From NCBI GenBank assembly GCA_027619975.1, contig JAQCGX010000004.1, forward strand, positions 25,508 to 89,507: a DNA stretch of 64,000 nucleotides, given 5' to 3'. Shown here piece by piece: positions 3,166-52,402 of the stretch (position 1 is the stretch's first letter; each line of letters begins with the position of its first letter). Position numbers and translations under genes: made by a program. The notes below the pieces were generated by a model. It saw only the letters and a program-made list of their open reading frames with translations. It was not told the DNA's origin and searched no databases. The stretch comes from Nitrospinota bacterium (GTDB taxonomy: Bacteria > Nitrospinota > Nitrospinia > Nitrospinales > VA-1).

Positions 3166-3268
3166 TCGGATGGACGATTTTAGAGGCAGACGGCCCCAAA
3201 GTCAAGTTTTGCCACAAGTGGGACGGGAAGTTGGCAGAATAACTTGATAGAATAAGAAAAAAATTTTC

Positions 3269-3294
3269 ACCGCAAAGACGCAAAGGTCGCAAAG
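3269..3294. repeat. left arm of 26-bp inverted repeat (3 x CGCAAAG) abutting the GxxExxY start codon
   Basis: ACCGCAAAGACGCAAAGGTCGCAAAG ends at 3294 and the ATG is at 3295. The reverse complement of 3675..3700 matches at 24/26 positions. Confidence 0.85.
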
Positions 3295-3672
3295 ATGGAC
3301 GAAAATGAATGGTCAAACAAAATAATTGGCGCGTGTATTGAAGTTCATAAATCCTTGGGGCCGGGATTATTGGAAAATGTTTACCAGAATTGCCTGGCAC
3401 GAGAATTTTCTTTGCAAAATATTCCTTTTCAAAAGGAAGTGTCCAAGCCAGTTGAGTATAAAGGTGTGTTAATGGATTGCGATCTTCGTCTCGATTTCCT
3501 GATAGATAATAAGGTCGTCGTTGAACTAAAAGCGGTTGAAAAGATTTTACCCGTCCACAAAGCTCAGGTATTGACCTATTTAAAACTAACAGGTTGTAAA
3601 CTTGGACTGCTGGTAAATTTCAATGTCTCGGCTCTTAAAGATGGCGTTGAAAGAATTGTTCTTGGCCTTTAA
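3295..3672 (+). CDS. GxxExxY family protein (PD-(D/E)XK-like)
   Basis: 125 aa. Begins ...IIGACIEVHKSLGPGLLENVYQNCL (the G-x-x-E-x-x-Y signature) and ends ...GLLVNFN; typical size for the family. Confidence 0.85.
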   Translation: MDENEWSNKIIGACIEVHKSLGPGLLENVYQNCLAREFSLQNIPFQKEVSKPVEYKGVLMDCDLRLDFLIDNKVVVELKAVEKILPVHKAQVLTYLKLTGCKLGLLVNFNVSALKDGVERIVLGL

Positions 3673-3674
3673 CC

Positions 3675-3700
3675 CTTTGCGTTCTTTGCGTCTTTGCGGT
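3675..3700. repeat. right arm of 26-bp inverted repeat (3 x CTTTGCG)
   Basis: CTTTGCGTTCTTTGCGTCTTTGCGGT starts 2 nt after the TAA stop of the GxxExxY gene. Confidence 0.85.
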
Positions 3701-3767
3701 AGAAATAGGGTTTAGTCTTCATATTTGCCCATAAACACTTCTTCATTAAAAGAAGAAAACATTCAAA

Positions 3768-5482: not shown

Positions 5483-5878
5483 TTATTTGGATGCGGCAAA
5501 CGCAAGCAACTCTCCGCCATATTCTCCCAGCGCCAGACTCAAAGCATCAATGCTACCTTCCAGCTCGTTGCGGTCGAGGTTTTCCAGTTGCAGGGTGTCG
5601 CGAAACAGGAGGGTGTTGCCGCTGTCATCCAGAACAAAAGCGCCGTGGACCAGAGTGCGGTTGATTTGCAATAAGCGTTTGTAGATTTCAGCGGTTCCGT
5701 TCGGTAACGGCAGAATCACCTGTTCTAAAATCACGATCGGATCTTCGCAATCGATGACCAGATGCTTGACGCCTCGATCTTCATCATTCACGACCACCAG
5801 TTCTTCGGCGGCATCTTCCTGGTCAATGGTGAACCCCATGTCCAGCAAATACTCTTTAACGTTTTCAAAATTGGCCAT
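5483..5878 (-). CDS. YbjN/DUF2170-like PspA-associated protein
   Basis: The track ORF starts at GTG 5896, but the ATG at 5878 is preceded by GAGGAG. The acidic ~131-aa protein sits at the position of E. coli yjfI, directly upstream of the PspA paralogue. Family assignment is from memory. Confidence 0.55.
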   Translation of the reverse strand: MANFENVKEYLLDMGFTIDQEDAAEELVVVNDEDRGVKHLVIDCEDPIVILEQVILPLPNGTAEIYKRLLQINRTLVHGAFVLDDSGNTLLFRDTLQLENLDRNELEGSIDALSLALGEYGGELLAFAASK

Positions 5879-5888
5879 TCTTAACTCC

Positions 5889-6245
5889 TCATCCACGTTT
5901 TGACAGTTCTTTGTCTAATAGTCGGTAACTTTCGGTCAACCGCAGGGTCAATTCTCCGGCGACTTTTCTTTTCTCAGGATCGGCATCGTGCAGATCCGGA
6001 TGATATTTTTTCAGCAATCGTTTCCAGGCGGACTTTACCGCTGTACGGTTAGAACCCGGCTGGATTTCCAGATTCGCGTAATATTGGATGAACGGGTCTG
6101 AGGTCACAGGTGCTGACTCAAACGCTTCCCGCGTATCAAAATTAAAAGGCGTTTCGTTCGGATTGTAGACAGTTTTTTCCTCTGTCCGCTTTCCCATGAA
6201 ATCGTTCAAATTGGCACGGGCGATATCGACCAGTCGTTTCATCAT
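5889..6245 (-). CDS. J-domain (DnaJ-like) protein
   Basis: 118 aa. C-terminal YYANLEIQPGSNRTAVKSAWKRLLKKYHPDLHDADPEKRKVAGELTLRLTESYRLL is a J-domain with an HPD motif. There is a 4-nt overlap with the upstream gene, and the stop overlaps the next gene. Confidence 0.8.
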   Translation of the reverse strand: MMKRLVDIARANLNDFMGKRTEEKTVYNPNETPFNFDTREAFESAPVTSDPFIQYYANLEIQPGSNRTAVKSAWKRLLKKYHPDLHDADPEKRKVAGELTLRLTESYRLLDKELSKRG

Positions 6246-6778
6246 GATAGCGTTGCCCCGGCGTGAACATACAGATTGGTTTTACTGATGATGGACAACC
6301 CATCTTCCGGGTAGGTGTGAATGGTAACAAACCCGTTCGCGGCCAGATCGACCGCCACCCCGGTGAAAGGTTGCGCCGAGTTTGAGAGTTTTGCGGCCTC
6401 AAAACGGTGCGTCAATATTTCCATGGGTGGAATCTCTCCCAGCGAGGAGAGAAAACCCTCCATATCCTCGAACAACCGCGGGACCATTTCGATCGTCACC
6501 GCATACTGAATGTTTCCCACTTGATATTCTCTGCAATAATTTTCCCCGGCCTGCAAGGGGAAATGGTCCAAAGGCTTGTCCGTCGTTTCATCGGATGAAC
6601 AGGCGATGAATTCTGTCAGCGCCACGCCGCCCCCCCGGCTGATCACCCGGTGGCTCTTCCCTATAATACAGGTGTCGAGAACAACACGGTTGTCCAGGGT
6701 CCACTGGCCCTGATTGAAAATGGTGACCGGGCAATCCGGGACGCCTGCAAACAGGCTGAAATAAACGGGGTCAGACAT
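6242..6778 (-). CDS. hypothetical protein, first gene of the PspA operon
   Basis: 178-aa ORF with an ATGA overlap onto the J-domain gene. No motif recognised. Confidence 0.6.
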   Translation of the reverse strand: MSDPVYFSLFAGVPDCPVTIFNQGQWTLDNRVVLDTCIIGKSHRVISRGGGVALTEFIACSSDETTDKPLDHFPLQAGENYCREYQVGNIQYAVTIEMVPRLFEDMEGFLSSLGEIPPMEILTHRFEAAKLSNSAQPFTGVAVDLAANGFVTIHTYPEDGLSIISKTNLYVHAGATLS

Positions 6779-6870: not shown

Positions 6871-6964
6871 CATCAATCCGTGCCCGATAAAATCCCGGCG
6901 CAGAGCCGAAAGCGGTACCCATGTCGATTTTGCTTGAATCGGTGGTAAACAAGCAACATCTTAA

Positions 6965-7185
6965 GGGCACCTCTAAAAATTATTTTATTACAGGAAATTG
7001 AACATTGTACAAGGATTTCATATATCAGTGGCACGGGCGACCTACCTTAAAGTTTATGCGGAAGTGCGGAATTTAATTCCGCCTTTCTAGCCCGTGCGGA
7101 CAGGCTGGAAAGCCTGTCCCACTAAAACAAAGCCATCTCCTTAAATTGACGATTAGGAGCATTTAGTCAATTTTTAGAGATGCCT
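6965..7185 (-). mobile_element. MITE copy A (221 bp, inverted orientation)
   Basis: Ends are GGGCACCTCTAAAAATT ... AATTTTTAGAGATGCCT. It is flanked by TTAA (6961-6964) and TTAA (7186-7189). It is about 90 percent identical to the reverse complement of copy D. Confidence 0.85.
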
Positions 7186-7231
7186 TTAAATTAAATCAGA
7201 CGTTCTCCCATCTGGCAGGAAATTAAAATTC

Positions 7232-10527: not shown

Positions 10528-11028
10528 TCACCGATAATTGGTAAACGTCATCGCGACCCCGAAATCCTTCTCCTTAAGCCTGGACATCGCCTCCTGAAGA
10601 TCGTCCTTATTCTTTCCCGTCACCCGCAACAGGTCGTCCATGATCTGGCTTTGCACCTTGAGTCCCATGCCTTTGATGGCCTTGGTGATTTCCTTGCCTT
10701 TATCCTGAGAAATGCCCTGCTGGACAAGGATGCTTTGCCGCACGCTATCGCCCGTGGCGGGTTCTACTTTGCCATAGTCAAGGCCCTTCAGAGATACTTT
10801 TCGTTTGACCAGCTTGCCCTGCAGCACATCGATCACGGAATTTAACTTGGAATCGTTGTCCGAGAGAATGGTGATCTTGTTTTCTTTTTTATCCAACGTG
10901 ATTTCGCTTTTACTGCCTTTAAAATCGAAACGCTGGCCGATTTCCGCCATCGCCTGATTCACCGCATTCTGGACTTCTTCCATGTCAATGACGGATACGA
11001 TATCGAACGAACTGTTCTTACTTGCCAT
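10528..11028 (-). CDS. yajQ: YajQ family nucleotide/c-di-GMP-binding protein (UPF0234)
   Basis: 166 aa. [34 protein letters not shown]... ending ...FTNYR is characteristic of YajQ. Confidence 0.85.
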
Positions 11029-11386
11029 TGAATTCCTATCCTCCTTTTATATATGAAATTTATCTGTCTAAAAAAGCCTTAAAAAATACTTTTGAACAAA
11101 AGGCTGGCTTACATTACCATAATCGCCAATCCATGCCAGCCGGATGTTTATTGGCAATAGATACGCGGGCGTTCCCTTCTCCGAATTTCTCCGGGTTGAA
11201 CAAAAATGCCATTCGAGGTATAATTTCATCATAGGTTCGGAGGTGGCAGTCCGAATGTAGAACATCGTTCAAAGCCCACACAACGTTGAACTCGCTCCAA
11301 TACGTTGCGGCGGGAGCCTTGGTCGGCGAGACAGTCCAAAGGCAAGCCGTTCACCTTCCCCATATCAACAAGCCCTTTCTCAAGCT

Positions 11387-12064
11387 TTAACACATCTGTT
11401 GCATATAATCGTAGAGACTTTTTCCTTTCTCATCCCGAAAACGCTCTTCCGTTATTTTCATATCCTGAATCCTGTCCAGACGAAAATTACGAAAATCATC
11501 CCGCATTTCACACCACCCGGAAATCAGCCATACCGGACTGAAAAAAGCCAAACAGAGAGGACGAACCCTCCGGGTTGAGGCCTCTCCATCTTCCCGTTTA
11601 TAGCTGAATTCTACTATGTTTTTGCCGCGAATGGCTCGACGAAGAGCTGTAAAGTCGATGTGAATTTTCACCTCATTCTTTGAGGCCATGGAAAACAAGA
11701 AAGTTTCCGCTATTTCTTTTCTCAGGCTTTCGGGTAGTACCGAAGTGATTTTGTCGAGGGCTTGATTGGCGGCTTTTGCCAGCTCTTTATCCCCCCAGCT
11801 CTGAACCATTTGTGCACCGAGCATGAGCGCATCCAATTCTTCAGTATCAAACATCAAGGGGCGCACCACGTAGTTCTTATGGAGCATATAGCCCACTCCC
11901 GCTTCCCCGATGATCGGCACACCGGAGGCTCCCAAATCCGCAATGTCGCGGTAGATGGTTCTGACGCTCACTCCCAGCTCTTCAGCAAGCGACCCTGCAG
12001 TCACGACCTGTCTGCGGGCTTTTAAATACTCTACAATACGGAACAATCGGTCCGCTCGGCGCAT
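11387..12064 (-). CDS. YafY-family HTH plus WYL domain transcriptional regulator
   Basis: 225 aa. N-terminal RADRLFRIVEYLKARRQVVTAGSLAEELGVSVRTIYRDIADL (DeoR-type HTH), with a WYL-like C-terminal half. Confidence 0.8.
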   Translation of the reverse strand: MRRADRLFRIVEYLKARRQVVTAGSLAEELGVSVRTIYRDIADLGASGVPIIGEAGVGYMLHKNYVVRPLMFDTEELDALMLGAQMVQSWGDKELAKAANQALDKITSVLPESLRKEIAETFLFSMASKNEVKIHIDFTALRRAIRGKNIVEFSYKREDGEASTRRVRPLCLAFFSPVWLISGWCEMRDDFRNFRLDRIQDMKITEERFRDEKGKSLYDYMQQMC

Positions 12065-12104
12065 GGTGATTTCCTGTTTTTGATTTTAGTTTTACCATAC
12101 TGCC

Positions 12105-12132
12105 ACCCTACTGACAATATGCTGTCAGTAGG
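12105..12132. promoter_or_regulatory. perfect 11-bp-arm palindrome, candidate operator in a divergent promoter region
   Basis: CCCTACTGACA-ATATGC-TGTCAGTAGGG lies between the divergently transcribed WYL regulator and VOC gene. Confidence 0.4.
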
Positions 12133-12203
12133 GTCGTGAATAATGGGAAACATCAGTGACAGGCAATTGAGTTTAACTTTTAATGAATGAATGGAGACTA
12201 TTT

Positions 12204-12656
12204 ATGAGCACGATTCCCGAAGGATTCACTTCCATAACCCCATATATCGTGATGGACGATGCGGCGGCGGCAATTGAGTTTTATAAAAAAGCGCTGGGAG
12301 CCGAAGAAATAATGCGTTTTCCTACACCGGATGGTGGGGTGATGTATGCTGAGATTCAAGTGGGCAATGCCCGCATGATGATGGGCCACCCTTGCCCGGA
12401 ATGGGGAGGAAAATCTGCAAAGAGTATGGGAGGCTCCCCGGTTTCTTTTTATCTTTACGTTGAGGATCTGGAAGCCACCTTCAGCAAAGCCAAATCTGCC
12501 GGCATGTCGGTCAAAAAAAAGGTTGAGGACATGTTCTGGGGAGACCGCATGGGAACACTCACCGACCCATTTAATATAGACTGGACCATCGCACAACATG
12601 TTCGTGATGTTTCACCGGAAGAAATGCAGGAAGCCATGAAGAAAATGGGTTGCTAA
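12204..12656 (+). CDS. VOC (glyoxalase/bleomycin-resistance, PhnB-like) family protein
   Basis: The ATG at 12204 is preceded by GGAG, whereas the track ORF starts at 12183. ITPYIVMDDAAAAIEFYKKALGAEE...FWGDRMGTLTDPFNIDWTI is typical of PhnB-like VOC proteins. Confidence 0.8.
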   Translation: MSTIPEGFTSITPYIVMDDAAAAIEFYKKALGAEEIMRFPTPDGGVMYAEIQVGNARMMMGHPCPEWGGKSAKSMGGSPVSFYLYVEDLEATFSKAKSAGMSVKKKVEDMFWGDRMGTLTDPFNIDWTIAQHVRDVSPEEMQEAMKKMGC

Positions 12657-12667
12657 TATTCTGTAAA

Positions 12668-12703
12668 GCAGTCGGTGAAAATACATGCCGACTGCTTTTT
12701 TTT
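12668..12703 (+). terminator. rho-independent terminator
   Basis: GCAGTCGG-12-nt loop-CCGACTGC followed by T8, located 12 nt after the VOC stop. Confidence 0.6.
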
Positions 12704-12732
12704 AAATGGCGCACACAAGGAAATTATTATGA

Positions 12733-12953
12733 GGGCATCTCTAAAAATAGACTAAATGTTCCTAATCGTTAATTTAAGGAGATGGCTTTGTTTTAGTGGG
12801 ACAGGCGACCTACCCTTAAAGGTTATACGGAAGTGCGGAATTTAATTCCGCCTTTCTAGCCTGTCCGCACGGGCTAGAAAGCCCGTGCCACCGATATAAG
12901 AAATCTTGTGCAATGTTCGATTTCCCGTAATAAACTAATTTTTAGAGGTGTCC
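12733..12953 (+). mobile_element. MITE copy B (221 bp)
   Basis: GGGCATCTCTAAAAATA ... AATTTTTAGAGGTGTCC. It is flanked by ATGA (12729-12732) and ATGA (12954-12957); the right duplicate supplies the start codon of the next gene. Confidence 0.85.
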
Positions 12954-13304
12954 ATGAGTAACAAAGACAATAGCATCAATTATATTGAATTGCCGATGGT
13001 CAAAAATGCAGAGACAAAAAAATTCTACCATCATGTATTTGGATGGGAATTTACAGATTTGGGGTCCAATTATATCAGTTTTTCCGGGGCAAATATTGAT
13101 GGTGGTTTTAATGGAGAAGGTGACGCCAAGGTGTCCAGTTCCGGTGTTCTTGTGGTTCTATACGCAAAAAACCTCAATCAAAAATTAGAAGAGGTGACAA
13201 AAGCCGGTGGAGAAATCACAAAACCCATCTTTGAGTTTCCGGGCGGAAAACGATTTCATTTCCGCGACCCCAACGGGAATGAACTGGCCGTGTGGTCGGA
13301 ATAA
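12954..13304 (+). CDS. VOC (glyoxalase) family protein
   Basis: 116 aa from the ATG at 12954; the track starts at GTG 12948, inside the MITE end. INYIELPMVKNAETKKFYHHVFGWEF...FRDPNGNELAVWSE. Confidence 0.75.
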   Translation: MSNKDNSINYIELPMVKNAETKKFYHHVFGWEFTDLGSNYISFSGANIDGGFNGEGDAKVSSSGVLVVLYAKNLNQKLEEVTKAGGEITKPIFEFPGGKRFHFRDPNGNELAVWSE

Positions 13305-19077: not shown

Positions 19078-19142
19078 AGCCGTGAGTATAGCGAAGAAAT
19101 TCTAAGAGGGAATCTAAAATTTTTCATAAAAAGTTTAAAAAC

Positions 19143-19464
19143 TGTCACCCTGAGCCTGTCGAAGGGTGGTAATAGTCGTAACCTGGGTTTTAGCATTTCT
19201 TTTTTCCAAAGAATAAATGATCCCCGCCCCAAGGGGCGGGGTATTTAAAGGTAGTTTTTTTTATAACCTCCCCTAACCCCTCCTTGCAAAGGAGGGGAAT
19301 GTGAAAGGAAACCCCGTAGCAGAGCTACGAGGAATTCTTTTGATTAAAGGATGGTCACGAAAGAAAAAGGAAGCCCTGATAAAGGAAAATTTTGATTTGC
19401 TATCAAAATTATCGAAAAATAAAACTGATAGTTTAGATCCCCCTTCGACAAGCTCAGGGTGACA
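19143..19464. repeat. hairpin-rich repeat block bounded by inverted GTCACCCTGAGC...TCGAAGGG arms
   Basis: TGTCACCCTGAGCCTGTCGAAGGG (19143-19166) pairs with CCCTTCGACAAGCTCAGGGTGACA (19441-19464). Internal perfect hairpins are CCCCGCCCC-AA-GGGGCGGGG (19222-19241), CCCCTCC-TTGCAAA-GGAGGGG (19277-19297) and CGTAGC-AGA-GCTACG (19315-19329). Confidence 0.7.
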
Positions 19465-19473
19465 ATAACGAAA

Positions 19474-23422: not shown

Positions 23423-23971
23423 ATGATCGCAACAATTCTTTCCACATTAGTGATAGGTTTTTTCCTGCTGCTATTCGCCATGGTGGTGTTTCCAGCATTT
23501 TTCGGGTCCCCTTGGCACCCATTGATGCCGGGCACAATCAAGGAAATCCTTGAGTTTTCGGCCATCCAGCCGGGAGAAAAAATCTACGATCTGGGATCAG
23601 GAGACGGGAGGGTGTTGATACAGGCGGCCCGTGATTATGAGGCGGTTGGGATGGGGTTGGAAATCGACCCTTTGAAAGTCTGGGTTGCCAGAAAATTGGC
23701 CCGCATGGCGGGGGTTTCCGACCGTGTTCAATTTCTTCGTAAAAACTTCAACGATTTTGATTTCCGCGATGCGGACATCCTTTACGTTTATTTAACCCAT
23801 CAAGCGCTGGACCGCTTGTTCCCCAGAATCCTGCCTTATTTGAAACCCTCCACCCGCATCGTGTCTTACCGGTTTTGCCTGCGCAACCTGCAACCCTGCA
23901 AAATTAATAAAAAACAAAATCTTTTTATGTACCGGCTGGATAAGGGGATGAAAGTGGATGGCTATTCATAA
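23423..23971 (+). CDS. class I SAM-dependent methyltransferase with N-terminal TM helix
   Basis: 182 aa with motif I IYDLGSGDGRVLIQAA. The TAA stop lies inside the MITE-C target-site duplication. Confidence 0.7.
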   Translation: MIATILSTLVIGFFLLLFAMVVFPAFFGSPWHPLMPGTIKEILEFSAIQPGEKIYDLGSGDGRVLIQAARDYEAVGMGLEIDPLKVWVARKLARMAGVSDRVQFLRKNFNDFDFRDADILYVYLTHQALDRLFPRILPYLKPSTRIVSYRFCLRNLQPCKINKKQNLFMYRLDKGMKVDGYS

Positions 23972-24340
23972 GGGCACTTCTAAAAATTGACAACGGCACC
24001 GAATCGCCAGCTCAAAGAAGCGTCTTTTGTTTTAGTAGGACAGGCTTTCCAGCCTGTCCGCACGGGCTGGAAAGCCCGTGCCACTGATTTAAGAAACTTT
24101 TGCACACGATTCTATTTTCTGTGAAAACTAATTTTTAGCAGGTTGCTGAAAAACTATTTTTTCTACTCGCAACTGTCACACTGAGCTTGTGATATTCGAC
24201 AATTGCCTTCATGCCCCAGAGGGGTATGTCGAAGTGTGAAAACAGCCCTTATTATTAAGGTCATACTTCGACAAGCTCAGTGTGACAACAGTGGAAACCC
24301 TCGTGGATGGGACTTTTTCAGCAACCTGTTAGAGATACCC
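23972..24340 (+). mobile_element. MITE copy C (175-bp element carrying a 190-bp nested element)
   Basis: GGGCACTTCTAAAAATT ... TTAGAGATACCC, flanked by ATAA (23968-23971) and ATAA (24341-24344). Arithmetic: 369 - 190 - 4 = 175 bp, identical to copy E. Confidence 0.85.
24139..24328. mobile_element. second, unrelated MITE nested in the right TIR of copy C
   Basis: 15-bp TIR CAGGTTGCTGAAAAA ... TTTTTCAGCAACCTG, flanked by TTAG (24135-24138) and TTAG (24329-24332). Removing the element and one TTAG restores AATTTTTAGAGATACCC. There is an internal IR TGTCACACTGAGCTTGT / ACAAGCTCAGTGTGACA. Confidence 0.8.
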
Positions 24341-24438
24341 ATAAAAAAGAATTCAGAAGATGAGAGCGAGAAAAAATTTCAATATAAAATTTTACTCTTC
24401 CTTAAAAGTATTCTCGATTCTAACTTCTTCTTTCTTCT

Positions 24439-26463
24439 TTATTCTACTTTAACCAATCCTTCCCAGACATAGGCCAACTGATCCCCTGATTTCACAACCA
24501 ACCACGGTTTATCATTAAAAAGCACTTTGGTTCGCCTGACCAGGGCTAACCGATCGCCTTTATTGGCTTTTCCCATTTCCGGGAAAACCGCGCCGGGGCC
24601 TTGTTTCAAGGAAACTCCGTCGATCAACACGCGGACAAATCCCCCTCCGGCTGTCGGTTGCGGAGGACTTTGCACTATTGGGGCCTGAGGCGCCGCAATT
24701 TCAGCCGGGGGAGTGGGAACAGGAACAGTCACCGGGGCTGGAGTCACCACCGGAGCCGGGGGGGGCAAGTCGGCGACTTTCGGAGTCACCGGGGGTTCCA
24801 AGCTCGCCACTTGCGGGTTCTCAATAATTTCAGGTTGGGTGATTTTTGGAACTTCCGGAGTCACCGTCTGCGGTTGCGCCGGCTTTTCAAGAGCAGGTGG
24901 ATTCGTTTCAGGGGAAGTCACCACCGATGCAACGGAGGCTGTTTTGCCGAATTTCACAAAAACGGGATTCGAAACAAGATGATCTACCGGGCTGACGATG
25001 ACATTCAACCGATAATAAGCCGGCCCGCTCATATCCACCTGGGAATCAATCATTTTAAGTTCATAGGGGAGAACAACACTTTCCCGCTTGATCACCGTTC
25101 CATTACGGATGAGAAACACTTTGGCTCTTTTTTCATTCCCATCCGTAGAATGAATTTTCACAGAAATCTCGGGGAATGCGGTAGCGACCAGTTGCTCACC
25201 TAAAGTGGCTATTTTCCCGGAATCAACATCCTTGACAACAAATTCGTCCAGGGAGAGGCGATGCGGACCCGGTTGACGCACCGCGTACATTCGGCCAGTA
25301 CGCATCGCATCCAGCACCGCATCCTGTTGTTTTTCGCGAACCAGGAAAATGGTTCGCACCGCTCCCAAAATAGGTCCGGATTCTCCTGCACATTGAAAAT
25401 CATTCGTTCCATATCCCCAAACCGGCTGTTGTCTCTCCCCGCGAACGTACTGCATCAACACATGATCCCAGACATTTCCAGGCTCGGTTAACGAGACGGG
25501 CCCATCTGCGACTGCCTGGAACCCCGTATAATTTTGAGACAACACAAGATCTTCAGGGTGCGGCTGTGTATCCAGTTGGATCGTTCCCCATTGTCTCTTG
25601 CCATTGACGGCCTCGACATCATTCCAAAACACCATCGCCCCTTTAGAAATGGCATAATCAATCACCTCCTGATAAGGGGCGACGCCCCGATCCTCATGAT
25701 ATTGATCAAATAACGAACTTCTAAAGGGATGATTATTGAATATCAATAATACAAAAAAAACAGCCAGCGGAAGGGTCGCTTTCCGGTAATAGCCCTTAAA
25801 AAACATCGACAAAGCGATGGCTAAAAGAAAACCATACCCGATGACAGAGTTTTGCAATTTGCCCGCATACTTCGTCGAAAAATTACTGTCGAGAACGGGA
25901 AGCTGCTCGAAGTCTTCCCCATACTTCAACCCGATAATGGAAAGGCGCTTGTCCCAGTTGTGGGCCACCAGATTTTTCTTAAAAACATTCCCTGTCCAGT
26001 AATAAAAAGGAGAAACATCGGTACCTGGAATCAGCAGAGTTTCACGAAATTGCTTGTTTTTATTTCTAATATTGGACAAGTAAACATTGGAACTGGTGCT
26101 GAGGATGGAGGGCCCCGCATTGGTCTTTTTAATAATGCGTTTTAAAGGGAAAATTCCGTATTGGATGGAATTTCTCACCTGGTCGTTGAAAATAACTATG
26201 TCCAGCCCCGCTTGTTCTGCCATCGTGGCGGTTTCCTGGAGGTTCGCGCATCCCGAGCTGTATTTGGTTTTTATATCCGCGACTCCATCCAGCTGAAGAT
26301 ATTTGCCAAAAGCCGGATTGGAAGCAAACAAGACCAACCCTATGACGAACAGACCCAAAGCATGGGTAGGACGGAGAATTAGGCTCACTCGGGTCAAAAG
26401 GCGTAAAGCATTCAGCCCGCTTTTTGAACCCTTCGATATTTGGGGACCGGTTTCATTCATCAT
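24439..26463 (-). CDS. membrane-anchored hypothetical protein with Pro-rich linker and C-terminal SH3-like domain
   Basis: 674 aa. N-terminal TM helix, large unrecognised domain, P/V/T-rich segment (…PPAPVVTPAPVTVPVPTPPAE…), and a terminal ~65 aa resembling bacterial SH3 (…KGDRLALVRRTKVLFNDKPWLVVKSGDQLAYVWEGLV). Confidence 0.6.
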   Translation of the reverse strand: MMNETGPQISKGSKSGLNALRLLTRVSLILRPTHALGLFVIGLVLFASNPAFGKYLQLDGVADIKTKYSSGCANLQETATMAEQAGLDIVIFNDQVRNSIQYGIFPLKRIIKKTNAGPSILSTSSNVYLSNIRNKNKQFRETLLIPGTDVSPFYYWTGNVFKKNLVAHNWDKRLSIIGLKYGEDFEQLPVLDSNFSTKYAGKLQNSVIGYGFLLAIALSMFFKGYYRKATLPLAVFFVLLIFNNHPFRSSLFDQYHEDRGVAPYQEVIDYAISKGAMVFWNDVEAVNGKRQWGTIQLDTQPHPEDLVLSQNYTGFQAVADGPVSLTEPGNVWDHVLMQYVRGERQQPVWGYGTNDFQCAGESGPILGAVRTIFLVREKQQDAVLDAMRTGRMYAVRQPGPHRLSLDEFVVKDVDSGKIATLGEQLVATAFPEISVKIHSTDGNEKRAKVFLIRNGTVIKRESVVLPYELKMIDSQVDMSGPAYYRLNVIVSPVDHLVSNPVFVKFGKTASVASVVTSPETNPPALEKPAQPQTVTPEVPKITQPEIIENPQVASLEPPVTPKVADLPPPAPVVTPAPVTVPVPTPPAEIAAPQAPIVQSPPQPTAGGGFVRVLIDGVSLKQGPGAVFPEMGKANKGDRLALVRRTKVLFNDKPWLVVKSGDQLAYVWEGLVKVE

Positions 26464-26787: not shown

Positions 26788-28278
26788 ATGACTTCCAGAA
26801 TTTTGGTCGTGGACGATAGCATAATGATCCAGAAAATCGTGGCCATGGCTTTTGAAAAGGAAGATGCAACCGTGGAAGGCATTGGTAACGGTAGCGAGGC
26901 ATTGGTAAGACTTAAAAAGTTCAAGCCGGATATTGTGTTGGCGGATGTGAATATGCCTGGACTCAACGGATTTGAACTGAGTAAAAAAATTAAAGAATCC
27001 AGCGAATTCGATTCCGTATCAGTTCTATTACTGACCAGCGACTTTGAAGATTTTGATGAGGACCTTTTTCACGACTCTCTGGCAGATGATCATATCACCA
27101 AACCTTTCAAATCTGAGGACATTGTACGCCGGGTCATGGAATTGCTGAACGGAACCGGTGGCTCAGACACCATTGAAGACGATGAAGATGTGATCACACT
27201 GGCGCCAACAGATCGGATGGAAGAGGAGTCCTTTGTGGAACTGGGGAAAAGTCATCTCGTGAGCCCTCCCGAGGAAATCTCTCTTGATCTTGATGAAGAT
27301 GAGATGCAATTGGAACTTTCAGACGAAGACATGCTGGTCACTTTGGAAAACCCGGAAAACGAAGAGCTGGTGGTGGATTTGGAAGAGGATATTGTCGACA
27401 CGGTCGATGACCCTGCCGATGTGGCTGAATCCCCTTGTGCAGACTCTCAGGAACGTGTTGAGGCCCCCTCAGTAAAACAGGTTCCGGAAGAATCCCTGGA
27501 CGAGTTGGTCCGAAGGGTCACAGAACTTTCCCGGAAATCGGAAGCTATTCGAGAGCAGAGATCCGCTGAAGAAGTGCGTCCTCTCGAAGCCCTGGATGAA
27601 ATGATAAGGGAAGTCAACGCTCTTAAAAGGGTTTCAACCGCTGTGAGCGGGGAAGGCAACGGTATTCCTAAAAACTCCGCACCTCCTGACACCACTGAGG
27701 TTAATACATTGATCGCCGAACTGAATTATTTCAGCGAAGAAAATGCTGAGGAGCTGGAGGCGGCTTTTAACGAAATTCTCCGAGGGAATAAAAATTTTGC
27801 TCCCCCTTCAACATCCGACCCGGCAGATGAAATCGCCGCCGCCGATGAGGGCAATGAGGATGAGAATAACGAAACCGTTTTTGAACCCGATACGGTTCAT
27901 GAAGACCTGATAATTTCCCCAGTGAAGATCTCACCCGCTAACTCCGTGGAGACTCAAGAGATCGAGACACTTCCTGAAACTTCAGAGGAGGTTGATGCGT
28001 CTCTGGAAGAAAACAATGTAGAGGTCGAGGAGGAAATTTTTGCAGATATCAGCGCCTTCCAGAGTTCTCAGGAGGATCTATACGCCCGGTTGATGGGAGA
28101 AGAATTCAGAGAAGTTCTCGAGCAGTCACTGGCCGCTTCCATGGAAAAGGAAATCTCCGGAATTTCTGAGAAGATCATTACATCTGTAGAAGAAGCCATC
28201 AAAGCAATTGTTCCTGGTTTGGTGCAAGAGATGATTGCCAAGGAAATAGAACAACATAAAAACGAGAATAATAGCTAA
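26788..28278 (+). CDS. response regulator receiver protein with long acidic C-terminal extension
   Basis: 496 aa. CheY-like receiver (ILVVDDSIMI...IVLADVNMPGLNG...HITKPF) followed by ~370 aa very rich in D/E with no recognisable output domain. The TAA stop lies inside the MITE-D TSD. Confidence 0.8.
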   Translation: MTSRILVVDDSIMIQKIVAMAFEKEDATVEGIGNGSEALVRLKKFKPDIVLADVNMPGLNGFELSKKIKESSEFDSVSVLLLTSDFEDFDEDLFHDSLADDHITKPFKSEDIVRRVMELLNGTGGSDTIEDDEDVITLAPTDRMEEESFVELGKSHLVSPPEEISLDLDEDEMQLELSDEDMLVTLENPENEELVVDLEEDIVDTVDDPADVAESPCADSQERVEAPSVKQVPEESLDELVRRVTELSRKSEAIREQRSAEEVRPLEALDEMIREVNALKRVSTAVSGEGNGIPKNSAPPDTTEVNTLIAELNYFSEENAEELEAAFNEILRGNKNFAPPSTSDPADEIAAADEGNEDENNETVFEPDTVHEDLIISPVKISPANSVETQEIETLPETSEEVDASLEENNVEVEEEIFADISAFQSSQEDLYARLMGEEFREVLEQSLAASMEKEISGISEKIITSVEEAIKAIVPGLVQEMIAKEIEQHKNENNS

Positions 28279-28279
28279 A

Positions 28280-28500
28280 GGGTATCTCTAAAAATTGACT
28301 AAATGCTCCTAATCGTCAACTTAAGGAGATGGCTTTGTTTTAGTGGAACAGGCTTTCCAGCCTGTTCGCACGGGCTAGAAAGGCGGAATTAAATTCCGCA
28401 CTTCCGCATAAACTTTAAGGTAGGTCGCCCGTGCCACCAATATAAGAAATCCTTGTACAGTGTTCGATTTCCTGTAATAAACTAATTTTTAGAGATGCCC
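28280..28500 (+). mobile_element. MITE copy D (221 bp)
   Basis: GGGTATCTCTAAAAATT ... AATTTTTAGAGATGCCC, flanked by TAAA (28276-28279) and TAAA (28501-28504). Confidence 0.88.
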
Positions 28501-28739
28501 TAAAGAATAACTCAAGCCGGATTTTGCTTTTTCTAAAGTGACAACTCCCTTCATAAGCATAGAAAAATTAAAACGCGGGTAGGGTTCCCTTTCCCGATCG
28601 TTTTTAATCAACCCTATTTAGTTAATGATGCCTGGAGAATAGTTTAGGTGAGGCGGGAAACTGCCCGGAGGTTCTGAGCCTTCTGTTCGCAAATACTGGT
28701 TTCGCCCTTTTACATTATTACAATTGACGCAATTTGATT

Positions 28740-42201: not shown

Positions 42202-43302
42202 ATGAATCCATTGATTTGGAAACGCATCAAGCGCTTGCTTCTCCACCGCGAGCTCCGATATCCCCTCACTCTTATATTAATACTTCTGGGAATGATCCTC
42301 ATCTTTGCGACGGTCTTTTCCCTGTTTGAAGAAGGCGCCAGCTTTACCGACGGGCTGTGGACCGCTTACATCACGGTGACCACCATCGGCTACGGTGATT
42401 TTTCCGCGCAAACCCCGCAAGGAAGAGTGATCACTGTACTCACATCTTTATTCGGAATCGGGTGCTTTGCGGTATTCACCGGTATCATTGTTGAGAAGGC
42501 TCTTCAAAGGAGGATGAAAAAAGTGAAAGGCGAAGGACAATACACGCGAGAAGGCCATCTGGTGATTGTGAATGTTCCGGCTTACGATGAAATCCTGGAG
42601 TTAATGAATGAACTGGACCTCAGCCCCGACTTGAAGGAAATTCCACGCGTGGTTTTGGCGGAATCTCTTCCTGGGGGCGACAAGGAAATTCCAGATTTTC
42701 TCTCCAGCAGGATCGACGGCTTCATCATGGGGCTTCCAGCGTCGGGAGAAACTTTGGGTCGAGTCAATATCGGAAAGGCAAAAGCCTGCCTGATCATGTC
42801 GTCTCCCCATGACCCGAAGCTGGACGACACCAACACGCTGACTGCTGGACTCATCGAAAAAATCTGTCCGCAGGTGATCACCATCATCGCCTGTAGCCGA
42901 CCGGAGACGATGAAAAACTTGAAGGCCTTCAATATCGATGGCGGCATCAATGCCACCGAATTGAACGTGGGATTGCTGGTTCAGGAACTGGAAGACCCCG
43001 GCGTGTTTGAGGTCTACAGTCAATTGTCATCCAACGCGGGAGGCAGCCAGATCTACATCAGCCGAACGCCGATGGGAAACTGGGACGGAGATATCAATCA
43101 GCTCACAATCCGGCAAATAAAAATCTCAGCGATTCATCTGGACCTGCCGACGGAGATTATCGGCATCAAGCGCGAATCCAATGAACAATTATTGCTCAAC
43201 CCTGCAAACGATGAGCGGATGCTGCCAACCGACCGGCTGGTTTATGTCGCAAAACAACGGTTTGACTGGCAGAAAAAAAGTGCGGAAATTTTAAACGCAT
43301 AA
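42202..43302 (+). CDS. potassium channel protein (2-TM pore plus cytoplasmic RCK-like domain)
   Basis: 366 aa with the selectivity filter TVTTIGYGD between two TM helices. Confidence 0.8.
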   Translation: MNPLIWKRIKRLLLHRELRYPLTLILILLGMILIFATVFSLFEEGASFTDGLWTAYITVTTIGYGDFSAQTPQGRVITVLTSLFGIGCFAVFTGIIVEKALQRRMKKVKGEGQYTREGHLVIVNVPAYDEILELMNELDLSPDLKEIPRVVLAESLPGGDKEIPDFLSSRIDGFIMGLPASGETLGRVNIGKAKACLIMSSPHDPKLDDTNTLTAGLIEKICPQVITIIACSRPETMKNLKAFNIDGGINATELNVGLLVQELEDPGVFEVYSQLSSNAGGSQIYISRTPMGNWDGDINQLTIRQIKISAIHLDLPTEIIGIKRESNEQLLLNPANDERMLPTDRLVYVAKQRFDWQKKSAEILNA

Positions 43303-43332
43303 ATTAACTGACGACCCCATTAATTCATCTCT

Positions 43333-44589
43333 ATGGATTCCTTTCGCTTCATTCATTGTTCCGACCTGCACATCGACAGCCCGTTCAAGGGCCTTTCCTC
43401 TGAAAAACCCGATCTGGCGAATAGGCTTCGGGCCTCCACCTCCCAAGCATTTCAGAACATCGTTGATCTTGCGATCCACGAAAAGGTCGATGCTGTGGTC
43501 ATCGCCGGCGATATTTACGACGGAGCCGATAAAAGCCTGCAGGCGCAATTTAAATTCCGTAAAGGGTTGCAGCAACTTTCCGATGCGGGAATCCCCTCTT
43601 TTCTGGCGCACGGCAATCATGATCCGCTGGACAGTCGCTTCGCCACGTTAAAATGGCCGGACCTTGTGACGGTCTTTTCCGGCAAAGCAGTGGAATGCCA
43701 CAACCTCCAACGGGATGGAAAACCCCTCGCCCAGATTCATGGCATCAGCTACCCCACCCGTGACGTTAAAAAAAATCTGGCGGTGCAATTTGCAAGGCAT
43801 TCCGACGCAGGATTCGCCATCGGCGTTTTGCACACCAATGTCGGCAGCAACCCCGATCACGGCGATTACGCCCCCTGCTCAATAGAAGACCTCGTTGCAG
43901 GAAACATGGATTATTGGGCCCTTGGCCATATCCATAGCTACCAAGTGCTTCGCGACAGCGATCCGGCCATCGTTTATTCGGGCAACACTCAGGCGCGGCA
44001 CAAAAACGAAACCGGAGTCAAAGGGTGTTGCCTGGTAACTCTGCACCCGAATTCATCGCCTGAGATTAAGTTCGTTCCCGTGGACAGTGTGCGTTTTATC
44101 TGCGAGTCTGTGGATTTGAGTGCGGCCCGGGATTTGGATGACGTGATTCAATGCGTTCAATCCCGGTGCGAGGAAATTTCAGCCAGGGCTGAGGGGCGCG
44201 ATACGCTGATCCACCTGACCTTGAACGGGCGCACCGAGGCCCACGAGGAACTCCAGCGAGGAAACAACGCCGAAGACCTGACCGAACAAATCCAATCGGG
44301 TTGTGAAGGCAAAACCCCTGCACTCTGGGTGACTCTCGCATTCCAGACCCAGGGAACCTACGATGTGGAGGCTCTGAGACAGGGCAACGATTTCATTGCC
44401 GACCTGCTCGCGCTTTATGACAAGGCGGACGAGGCGAAGGAAACCGAAGCGTTAAAACAAGCTCTCTCACCTCTTTATGAGAACTGGGCGGGAAGCAAAT
44501 ATCTGGAGGAAATTTCCCCCGAAGACCTTCAGAATCTGATACTCCGGGCGCGCAACCTCACTCTCGACCAACTGGTGGAGGAGAAATGA
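43333..44589 (+). CDS. metallophosphoesterase, SbcD/YhaO-like DNA repair exonuclease
   Basis: 418 aa. FIHCSDLHID, VVIAGDIYDG and AHGNHDP calcineurin-like motifs. Confidence 0.8.
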   Translation: MDSFRFIHCSDLHIDSPFKGLSSEKPDLANRLRASTSQAFQNIVDLAIHEKVDAVVIAGDIYDGADKSLQAQFKFRKGLQQLSDAGIPSFLAHGNHDPLDSRFATLKWPDLVTVFSGKAVECHNLQRDGKPLAQIHGISYPTRDVKKNLAVQFARHSDAGFAIGVLHTNVGSNPDHGDYAPCSIEDLVAGNMDYWALGHIHSYQVLRDSDPAIVYSGNTQARHKNETGVKGCCLVTLHPNSSPEIKFVPVDSVRFICESVDLSAARDLDDVIQCVQSRCEEISARAEGRDTLIHLTLNGRTEAHEELQRGNNAEDLTEQIQSGCEGKTPALWVTLAFQTQGTYDVEALRQGNDFIADLLALYDKADEAKETEALKQALSPLYENWAGSKYLEEISPEDLQNLILRARNLTLDQLVEEK

Positions 44590-49712: not shown

Positions 49713-50356
<644 letters not shown>

Positions 50357-52227: not shown

Positions 52228-52402
52228 GGGCATCTCTAAAAATTGACAACGACGCCGAATCGCCAATTCAAAGAAGCGTCTTTTGTTTTAGTAGGACAGG
52301 CGACCTACCCTTAAATTTAAGGATAGGTCGCCCGTGCCACTGATTTAAGAAACTTTTGCACACGATTCTATTTTCTGTGAAAACTAATTTTTAGAGATGC
52401 CC
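52228..52402 (+). mobile_element. MITE copy E (175 bp, perfect 17-bp TIR)
   Basis: GGGCATCTCTAAAAATT ... AATTTTTAGAGATGCCC, flanked by TTAA (52224-52227) and TTAA (52403-52406). Confidence 0.88.

Follow-up and report, generated by a model that had tools for sequence, protein, structure and literature searches.

Recently inserted miniature inverted-repeat transposable elements with IS5-type ends in a Nitrospinota genome

Elements in the window

The DNA analyzed here (the window) is a 64,000-nucleotide stretch of a Nitrospinota bacterium (assembly GCA_027619975.1, contig JAQCGX010000004.1, positions 25,508 to 89,507 of the forward strand); all positions below are those of the window. It carries five short, dispersed elements with 17-bp terminal inverted repeats (TIRs), each flanked by a 4-bp direct duplication. 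An initial annotation, made from the letters alone, had proposed that these constitute an undescribed family of transposable elements of the miniature inverted-repeat type (MITEs). The copies are as follows; the arm subfamilies, module X, and hairpins a and b are described under Anatomy.

6961..7189 (element 6965-7185), minus strand: MITE copy 1, 221 bp, subfamily A, module X beside hairpin b, duplication TTAA/TTAA; nhmmer E = 3e-54
12729..12957 (element 12733-12953), plus strand: MITE copy 2, 221 bp, subfamily A, module X beside hairpin a, duplication ATGA/ATGA
23968..24344 (element 23972-24340), plus strand: MITE copy 3, subfamily B, 175 bp when a nested element is subtracted, duplication ATAA/ATAA
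28276..28504 (element 28280-28500), plus strand: MITE copy 4, 221 bp, subfamily A, duplication TAAA/TAAA
52224..52406 (element 52228-52402), plus strand: MITE copy 5, 175 bp, subfamily B, center replaced by a 28-nt GACCTACC hairpin, both TIRs perfect, duplication TTAA/TTAA

The whole 64-kb window was searched for the 17-mer GGGCATCTCTAAAAATT with up to three mismatches allowed. Nine sites were found, compared to 0.39 expected by chance; eight of them form inverted pairs (6965/7185, 12733/12953, 28280/28500, and 52228/52402), and the ninth is the left end at 23972. A profile hidden Markov model (HMM) of the family, which drew on the window copies and their metagenomic relatives, returned exactly five copies and no others. 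The number and positions of the copies were thus the same as had been reported initially. All ten ends bear the 17-bp TIR with 0-2 mismatches. Direct reading of the sequence confirmed the inverted ends, including the perfect pair in the copy at 52228, and a perfect direct 4-mer on both sides of five of five copies (TTAA, ATGA, ATAA, TAAA, and TTAA). Four copies are 221, 221, 221, and 175 bp long. The fifth spans 369 bp, i.e. 175 bp plus a nested element of 190 bp plus 4 bp, and the quantized sizes described earlier therefore hold. Left arms are 92-95% identical within an arm subfamily and ca. 60% identical between the two, and the proposed division into two subfamilies is accordingly real. The longest stop-free stretch within any copy was 37-46 codons, in keeping with the claim that the elements contain no open reading frame (ORF). 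The further claim that the window encodes no transposase was upheld by tblastn with an IS5-type transposase and by Pfam annotation of the window genes from ca. 2950 to 63600. The family as a whole shows the generic attributes of MITEs: it has a TIR and a target duplication, its members are small and non-coding, and its copies are dispersed and polymorphic between strains.

Empty sites in a sister strain

Three contigs (Ga0335110_1400457, Ga0335111_1580148, and SRR28106091_1051; loci labelled L156/L157, L181, and L208) represent a sister strain that is collinear with the window. Nucleotide identity is ca. 94-98% per aligned block and mostly 96-97%. All five MITE positions are empty in this strain; four of the five are base-exact, with a single 4-mer:

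Site 28280: filled, AATAGC-TAAA-MITE-TAAA-GAATAAC; empty, AATAGC-TAAA-GAATAAC (L156/L157)
Site 6965: filled, CATC-TTAA-MITE-TTAA-ATTAAATC; empty, CATC-TTAA-ATCAAATC (L181)
Site 12733: filled, ATTATT-ATGA-MITE-ATGA-GTAAC; empty, ATTATT-ATGA-GCAAC, i.e. ...CACAAGGAAATTATT-ATGA-GCAAC (L181)
Site 52228: filled, ACCA-TTAA-MITE-TTAA-ATCTAAAA; empty, ATCG-TTAA-ATCTAAAA, i.e. GGACATCG-TTAA-ATCTAAAATTTC (L208)

At the remaining site (23972), the MITE and its nested element are both absent from L156, where the intergenic gap is 41 bp as opposed to 468 bp in the window; the downstream spacer has diverged, and the empty site is not base-exact. The two MITE sites covered by L181 are simply empty, and the TIR (up to three mismatches) was not found in the ca. 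55 kb of sister-strain DNA scanned (L156/L157 and L208). These comparisons prove that the filled alleles arose by insertion. Because five sites are empty in a strain that is ca. 96-97% identical, the insertions are recent and specific to the lineage of the window. Five insertions in 64 kb since that split, with none in the homologous DNA of the sister strain, represent very recent transposition.

The initial annotation had read the family as mobile and had suggested looking for empty sites (flank, single 4-mer, flank), for further copies, for a full-length insertion sequence (IS) with the same TIR, and for syntenic conservation of the kind expected from an RNA gene. The mobile-element reading was borne out at each point. 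Empty orthologous sites carrying one 4-mer were present at four of the five loci, and further copies occur in a related Nitrospinota population in metagenome Ga0114931, in which the family lies on 17 contigs. A full-length IS with the same TIR was found and belongs to the IS5 family (see below), and the elements show neither syntenic conservation nor a match in Rfam.

The valyl-tRNA synthetase of the window has 100% identity to the NCBI protein “MAG: valine--tRNA ligase [Nitrospinae bacterium]”, and its next relatives belong without exception to Nitrospinaceae or Nitrospinota. DNA of the window recurs on ca. 20 metagenomic contigs, and several of these stop inside a MITE copy (L167, L169, L170, L164/L165, and L172). 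Such interruptions are expected of a dispersed repeat, and the MITE copies account for the breakage of metagenomic contigs of this species at these positions.

Full-length insertion sequences with the same ends

Exact matches to the TIR were collected in a scan of one genome per species, which yielded at least 120 loci. No MITE body of the window family was present among the genome matches listed, in which only the terminal ca. 17-26 nt agree. Three of these matches (L012, L053, and L059; Sulfitobacter and Chachezhania) are identical to each other for more than 50 nt. L059 is a contig of 1294 bp that consists of one whole IS, from GGGCATCTCTAAAAATTGCCC to ...GTCAAAAATCGAGGTGCCC, with a single ORF of 364 codons; its first nucleotides are GGGCATCTCTAAAAATTGC. 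The same IS is located on the Pseudosulfitobacter pseudonitzschiae plasmid NZ_CP086949.1 (L127), where it is flanked by CTTA/CTTA and its ORF is annotated by RefSeq as “IS5 family transposase” (WP_114276417.1). A second full-length IS of ca. 1.35 kb was located by tblastn with the L059 transposase in a metagenome-assembled genome (MAG) of the Methylococcaceae (L030). It has the same 17-mer at its end, and the two transposases are 56% identical (55% in the tblastn alignment). In a third IS lineage (P0125), the end reads GGGCACCTCTAAAAATTGC and the flanking duplication is AGTG/AGTG. Over 17-19 nt, the MITE TIR is identical to the termini of both L059/L127 and L030.

The L059 transposase contains the Pfam domains DDE_Tnp_1 (1e-22) and DUF772 (1e-20), and the same two domains were assigned to the L030 transposase through the precomputed annotation of its homologues. 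In a comparison to the NCBIfam model NF033581 (transpos_IS5_4), the L059 and L030 proteins scored 294 and 284 bits, respectively, against a cutoff of 140. The possession of IS5 ends together with 4-bp duplications like those of two well-delimited IS copies is the classical signature of mobilization in trans. The window elements are therefore very probably non-autonomous IS5-type MITEs that are moved in trans by an IS5-family transposase encoded elsewhere. By the same token, the transposase acting in the window genome would be of the IS5 type.

According to blastn and nhmmer, the TIR region is all that the MITEs and the full-length IS have in common; the interior of the IS has no detectable similarity to them. 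Given these dissimilar interiors, the comparison affords no evidence that the window MITEs would be simple internal-deletion derivatives of these IS.

Several results weigh against assignment to the IS5 type. A tblastn search with an IS5-type transposase over 1.3 Mb (the window and the fetched DNA) returned only L059, L127, L030, and L053; neither the window nor the related Nitrospinota DNA examined yielded such a transposase. The ends of the MITEs are unlike the right end (GGGCACCTCGATTTTTGAC) of the Roseobacter IS, the MITEs being effectively left-end/left-end elements. IS5 of E. coli has a strict YTAR target; TTAA, which occurs twice among the window duplications, fits this pattern, and the other three of the five (ATGA, ATAA, and TAAA) do not. 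Finally, the L030 IS is flanked by the non-identical 4-mers TTAA/TATA.

A profile search with the two transposases gave 8000 IS5-family homologues, mostly Roseobacter-like and none tied to Nitrospinota, and blastn of the L059 transposase gene against the collection of E. coli genomes found no match. Among the matches listed, TIR pairs set farther apart (0.6-3.5 kb; L025 at 5785-6580, L114, L072, and L021) were considered as autonomous elements and were rejected, as they enclose ordinary host genes or adjacent mini-elements and no transposases.

The proposed course of transposition is as follows. A DDE transposase of the IS5 family, encoded elsewhere, would bind the GGGCAyCTCTAAAAATt ends and excise or copy the MITE. 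Cuts with a 4-bp stagger would open an A/T-rich 4-mer for integration, and their repair would generate the 4-bp direct duplication. A preference for TTAA/TAAA-like targets, combined with selection against gene disruption, would place copies at TAA stops and start codons, where the duplication regenerates the stop or the ATG and leaves the neighboring ORFs intact. The center gains, loses, or swaps short hairpin modules, and the 175- and 221-bp classes arise in this way.

Anatomy

The window copies were compared to 11 complete relatives from metagenome Ga0114931. In all of them the left arm measures 74 nt; the right arm is 73-75 nt in most copies, with two truncated exceptions of 58 and 61 nt. 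The variable part is the center alone, which spans 3 to 103 nt. The base center is 28 nt (TTTCCAGCCTGTCCGCACGGGCTGGAAA); together with the ends of the arms it folds into a pair of GC-rich hairpins, termed a (GGACAGGC/GCCTGTCC) and b (GCACGGGC/GCCCGTGC). The 221-bp copies have an added hairpin module of 45/46 nt (module X, GACCTACC...GCGGAATTTAATTCCGCC). In the copy at 12733 this module lies after the 5' arm of hairpin a; in the copies at 6965 and 28280 it is inverted and precedes the 3' arm of hairpin b. The two 221-bp forms might have arisen by simply inverting the center, but this possibility was rejected, since hairpins a' and b follow each other in the same order in both. In the copy at 52228, a 28-nt hairpin built from the two ends of the module stands in place of the base center. 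The size classes of 175 and 221 bp thus result from constant arms around a center with added or swapped hairpin modules, and two different elements are both 175 bp long because the 28-nt hairpin replaces a 28-nt base center. In the Ga0114931 population, other AT-rich hairpin modules (ATTGCT...AGCAAT) occupy the same two positions.

GTAG/GTGG stands at the head of each central hairpin (GTAGGACAGGCTTTCCAGCCTGTCC on one strand, GTGGCACGGGC... on the opposite one), and the GGACAGGC hairpin is confined, within the window, to the five MITEs. The center is read as a double hairpin resembling repetitive extragenic palindromic (REP) sequences, either unstable or itself a target for tiny insertions. The transposing unit is still the whole TIR-bounded element.

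The 20-mer TTTGTTTTAGTRGRACAGGC, which covers part of the MITE left arm and hairpin, was used as the query for a metagenome scan. It also heads REP-dimer-like repeats (GTAGGACAGGCTTCAGCCTGTC ... inverted partner) in other organisms (L133, L140, L141, L143, L144, L151, and L154; soil and other metagenome contigs), and these repeats are devoid of IS5-type TIRs.

The single-strand fold of the elements is strong (z = -6.0 as DNA and -9.0 as RNA). At the gathering score, Rfam 15 matched only tRNA-Phe in the whole window, and there was no Rfam match at E ≤ 1 over 11000-13100, which contains copy 2. A scan of copies 3 and 4 for promoter and terminator consensus sequences found none inside them. In the copy at 28280 (subfamily A; window 28343-28366), hairpin a carries a paired change from GGACAGGC/GCCTGTCC to GAACAGGC/GCCTGTTC. 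The same paired change is present, independently, in L147 (subfamily B), and it reflects either selection on the stem or hairpin-templated repair.

Alternative explanations

Three other accounts of the elements were weighed. Mobilization could be due to another DDE family with 4-bp duplications (e.g. IS701, IS1380, or ISAzo13), with the match to IS5 ends arising by convergence or end capture. Several IS families give duplications of this length, no cognate transposase was found in the DNA of this lineage (the window and the fetched relatives), and the window duplications are A/T-rich, not strictly YTAR. This account is nonetheless improbable, as the match extends over exactly 17-19 nt at the very terminus of three IS5-family lineages, two of them with 4-bp duplications, and no other type of transposase lies beside any of the ca. 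120 TIR occurrences listed. The inverted pair of GC-rich hairpins headed by GTAG/GTGG could also denote a REPIN-like element, i.e. a doublet of REP hairpins moved by a REP-associated tyrosine transposase (RAYT; IS200/IS605-like, of the tyrosine/HUH type), to which the outer repeats would be incidental. The TTTGTTTTAGTRGRACAGGC-headed repeats in unrelated soil contigs are compatible with such an origin, and there is a precedent for REP dimers within longer palindromes in Anabaena variabilis (PMC3733652). The unit that is polymorphic between strains, however, is the whole TIR-bounded element with its 4-bp duplication; the window has no GGACAGGC hairpin outside the five MITEs, and Pfam annotation of the window genes shows no Y1/RAYT gene. 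We also know of no 4-bp target duplication for elements of the REP/RAYT type, and we regard this origin as highly unlikely.

A structured non-coding or cis-regulatory RNA (a terminator or stabilizer) that is kept for its function and is not mobile would accommodate the very stable folds (z = -6 to -9), the placement of three of the five copies against gene ends, and the double change that keeps hairpin a paired in the copy at 28280 and in L147. Paired changes in a palindrome, however, can also come from hairpin-templated repair, and the orientation of the copies to their neighboring genes is inconsistent. Neither a terminator-like T-run nor a promoter consensus is present in copies 3 and 4, and the Rfam searches described above were negative. 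The five copies are all absent from a strain of ca. 96-97% identity, with a single 4-mer at four of the sites. Very little credence can thus be given to an immobile RNA.

Relation to known elements

The IS5 subgroup described above (DDE_Tnp_1 plus DUF772, NF033581; NZ_CP086949.1 and L030) has the same terminal 17-19 nt (GGGCATCTCTAAAAATTGC), 4-bp duplications, and A/T-rich targets. The window elements differ from it in that they are 175-221 bp long and non-coding and that both of their ends resemble the left end of the IS. The same logic is known from the Tourist MITEs and PIF-Harbinger elements of eukaryotes, in which heterogeneous MITEs share the ends recognized by an IS5-like DDE transposase and insert into short A/T targets; the PIF-Harbinger transposase is related to that of IS5, and the duplication is 3 bp (TWA). 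Classical bacterial MITEs (Nezha, other cyanobacterial families, Correia/NEMIS, RUP, ERIC, and Chunjie) are likewise small, non-coding, TIR-bounded, flanked by direct repeats, and strongly folded, with A/T-rich intergenic targets, a TIR in common with transposase-encoding IS, and filled/empty polymorphism. The duplication of Correia and RUP is TA. The window family is set apart from these by its sequence, its host phylum (Nitrospinota), and its parent IS clade; for Nezha/ISNpu3, this separation is by description only. The classical families are reviewed in PMC3184786 and PMC10969869, neither of which holds a matching sequence, and the duplication of Chunjie is 9 bp (PMC3184786) as opposed to 4 bp here. 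The GTAG-headed REP and REPIN sequences (Di Nocera et al. 2013, PMC3733652) resemble the MITE center in its inverted GC-rich hairpins headed by GTAG/GTGG, and REP dimers nested in longer palindromes are described for A. variabilis (section 7 of the same paper). In contrast to these, the mobile unit in the window has TIRs and a 4-bp duplication, with no RAYT gene nearby.

The TIR string (substrings on both strands) was not found in any of ca. 8 million open-access full texts, which is a weak test of the claim that the family is undescribed. In kind, the family is a previously known and ordinary element, specifically an IS5-type MITE, recently active in a Nitrospinota lineage, and the findings leave the picture of how MITEs work unchanged. 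What has been added to the initial annotation is the IS5-type assignment, the hairpin-module basis of the sizes, and the occurrence of the TIR across phyla. The leads that are less ordinary are the near-invariant 17-bp end in different phyla, the minimal elements of 36 bp, and the modular, REP-like center.

The same end in other phyla

Complete small elements, in which a partner TIR lies no more than 420 bp away, account for 80 of the matches listed. They are 36-334 bp long, cluster near 140, 180, and 235-247 bp, and have lineage-specific bodies. In the 78 listed elements that could be scored for a 4-bp duplication, 48 duplications were perfect and 16 had one mismatch; control 4-mers displaced by 4 bp matched in 0 of 78. 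The consensus of the duplications among these matches is T-T-A-A across phyla, with individual sites spread widely over A/T-rich 4-mers. The partner ends are ca. 88-99% conserved at positions 1-3 and 7-16, vary at positions 4-6, and are less conserved after position 17. A 17-mer is expected by chance ca. 70 times in 596 Gb. Despite this expectation, the statistics of partner TIRs and duplications show that most of the listed matches are real elements. Eight matches on viral contigs had no partner TIR and were judged to be due to chance; two of them (L191 and L198) represent the same phage coding region.

Intact elements were found in Beta-, Gamma-, and Alphaproteobacteria (Nitrosomonas, Gallionellaceae, Nitrotoga, and Rickettsiales). 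Their other hosts are Planctomycetota, Nitrospinota, Spirochaetota, Bacteroidota, Ignavibacteria, Fibrobacterota, Lentisphaerae/Victivallales, Bdellovibrionales, “Deltaproteobacteria”, and Lachnospiraceae. The smallest elements, found in Treponema and other gut MAGs, are bare dimers of two TIRs (e.g. GGGCATCTCTAAAAATTGCAATTTTTAGAGGCTCCC), and six of ten have perfect 4-bp duplications:

36-bp elements: L021, L028, L038, L048, L062, L068, L075, L114, L117, and L118

Such a dimer is possibly the minimal transposable unit for this IS5 clade, and it offers a defined minimal substrate for biochemistry on IS5-type transposases. We tentatively suggest that the 17-bp end GGGCAyCTCTAAAAATt may mark a pan-bacterial MITE superfamily served by one clade of IS5 transposases, with unrelated bodies, from bare 36-bp dimers up to elements of 250 bp, built repeatedly between the same ends in at least 10 phyla; we hold this to be a real possibility that falls short of being probable. 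If it were true, an IS5-type transposase would have 36 bp as its natural minimal substrate, and the spread of ends across phyla, not of whole elements, would be the unit of inheritance. The window family might then show how bodies grow, namely by the addition and loss of hairpin modules at a double hairpin of REP-like type and by nesting of a second MITE in a TIR. In practice, the 17-bp end is a simple search handle for the annotation of MITEs in MAGs.

Neighboring genes

The initial annotation had placed the insertions on gene boundaries, with the TAA stops of 23423-23971 and 26788-28278 and the ATG at 12954 lying within the duplications; comparison to the empty alleles substantiated this. 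The left ATAA of copy 3 holds the TAA stop of the methyltransferase gene 23423-23971, and the left TAAA of copy 4 holds that of the response-regulator gene 26788-28278. Both stops are intact after insertion, and the empty alleles have the same stop. That two copies lie on TAA stops is explained by the TTAA/TAAA-like target.

Copy 2 separates the Shine-Dalgarno sequence (AAGGAA) from the ATG of a gene for a 116-aa protein of the glyoxalase family. In the empty allele (L181), AAGGAA has its native spacing of 7 nt upstream of the ATG; in the filled allele it is 225 bp away. There the ATG is preceded by a mutated TIR (...TTTTTAGAGGTGTCC), in which GAGGTG ends 3 nt before the ATG and the GAGG core lies 5 nt upstream. 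The insertion leaves the 116-aa ORF intact, and at least 23 contigs encode an identical product. Judging from these spacings, the TIR may now supply the ribosome-binding site of this gene, and copy 2 offers a natural experiment on the capacity of a MITE end to provide translation signals.

A 674-aa ORF beside copy 3 (24439-26463, minus strand) was considered as a novel transposase and rejected, as it has no Pfam hit and is syntenic in MITE-free relatives. It is conserved, without the MITE, in relatives whose valyl-tRNA synthetase is only ca. 85% identical to that of the window, and it is a host gene with no assigned Pfam domain.

A nested second family and other repeats

The right TIR of copy 3 is interrupted by an element with different ends:

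24135..24332 (element 24139-24328), plus strand: nested element, 190 bp, second TIR family (CAGGTTGCTGAAAAA... / ...TTTTTCAGCAACCTG), 15-bp TIR, duplication TTAG/TTAG, inside the right TIR of copy 3

The interruption reads ...AATTTTTAG/CAGGTTGCTG...CAGCAACCTG/TTAGAGATACCC, where the slashes mark the junctions. Removal of the nested element and one TTAG restores a right TIR (AATTTTTAGAGATACCC) with one mismatch to the consensus and an element of 175 bp. Free copies of the second family are present at L129:3248-3398, L137:10281-10429, and L153:10670-10791. The family is 120-190 bp long with variable bodies, and the duplication is TTAG in two cases, of which L137 is one. The junction AATTTTTAG/CAGGTTGCTG recurs identically in L132 (from 3595), in a MITE of the other arm type. 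This identity hints that the TTAG within the TIR of the first family is a preferred target of the second.

A motif found inside the nested element is related to a segment at 19094-19473. This segment is 381 bp long, compared to only 36 bp in L156, which is ca. 97% identical; it contains the inverted pair TGTCACCCTGAGCCTGTCGAAGGG / CCCTTCGACAAGCTCAGGGTGACA and three GC-rich hairpins, and it is probably another small mobile or palindromic repeat.

Other differences from the sister strain

At 11178-11384, 207 bp between the YajQ and WYL-regulator genes are absent from L181. The segment contains a near-perfect TTGAAC-17-TATAAT promoter-like site and has no Rfam match; its junctions share CCCT(T)TCTC microhomology, and the difference may be a deletion in the sister strain. 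Two larger differences are strain-level gene loss or gain unrelated to the MITEs. At 49820-49833, ca. 12 bp of the window correspond to ca. 2.8 kb in L208; encoded there are a full CHASE2-guanylate cyclase and also a regulator of the Crp family. In the window strain, a 210-aa remnant of CHASE2 adjoins tRNA-Phe (49713-49787). At 43296-43339, ca. 40 bp of the window correspond to ca. 3.1 kb in the sister strain, with CorA and a Na/H exchanger. Elsewhere in the window, a 125-aa PDDEXK_3 (PF13366) ORF at 3295-3672 is bracketed exactly by 32-nt inverted repeats (3263-3294 and 3675-3706), which are GCAAAG-rich and 88% complementary.

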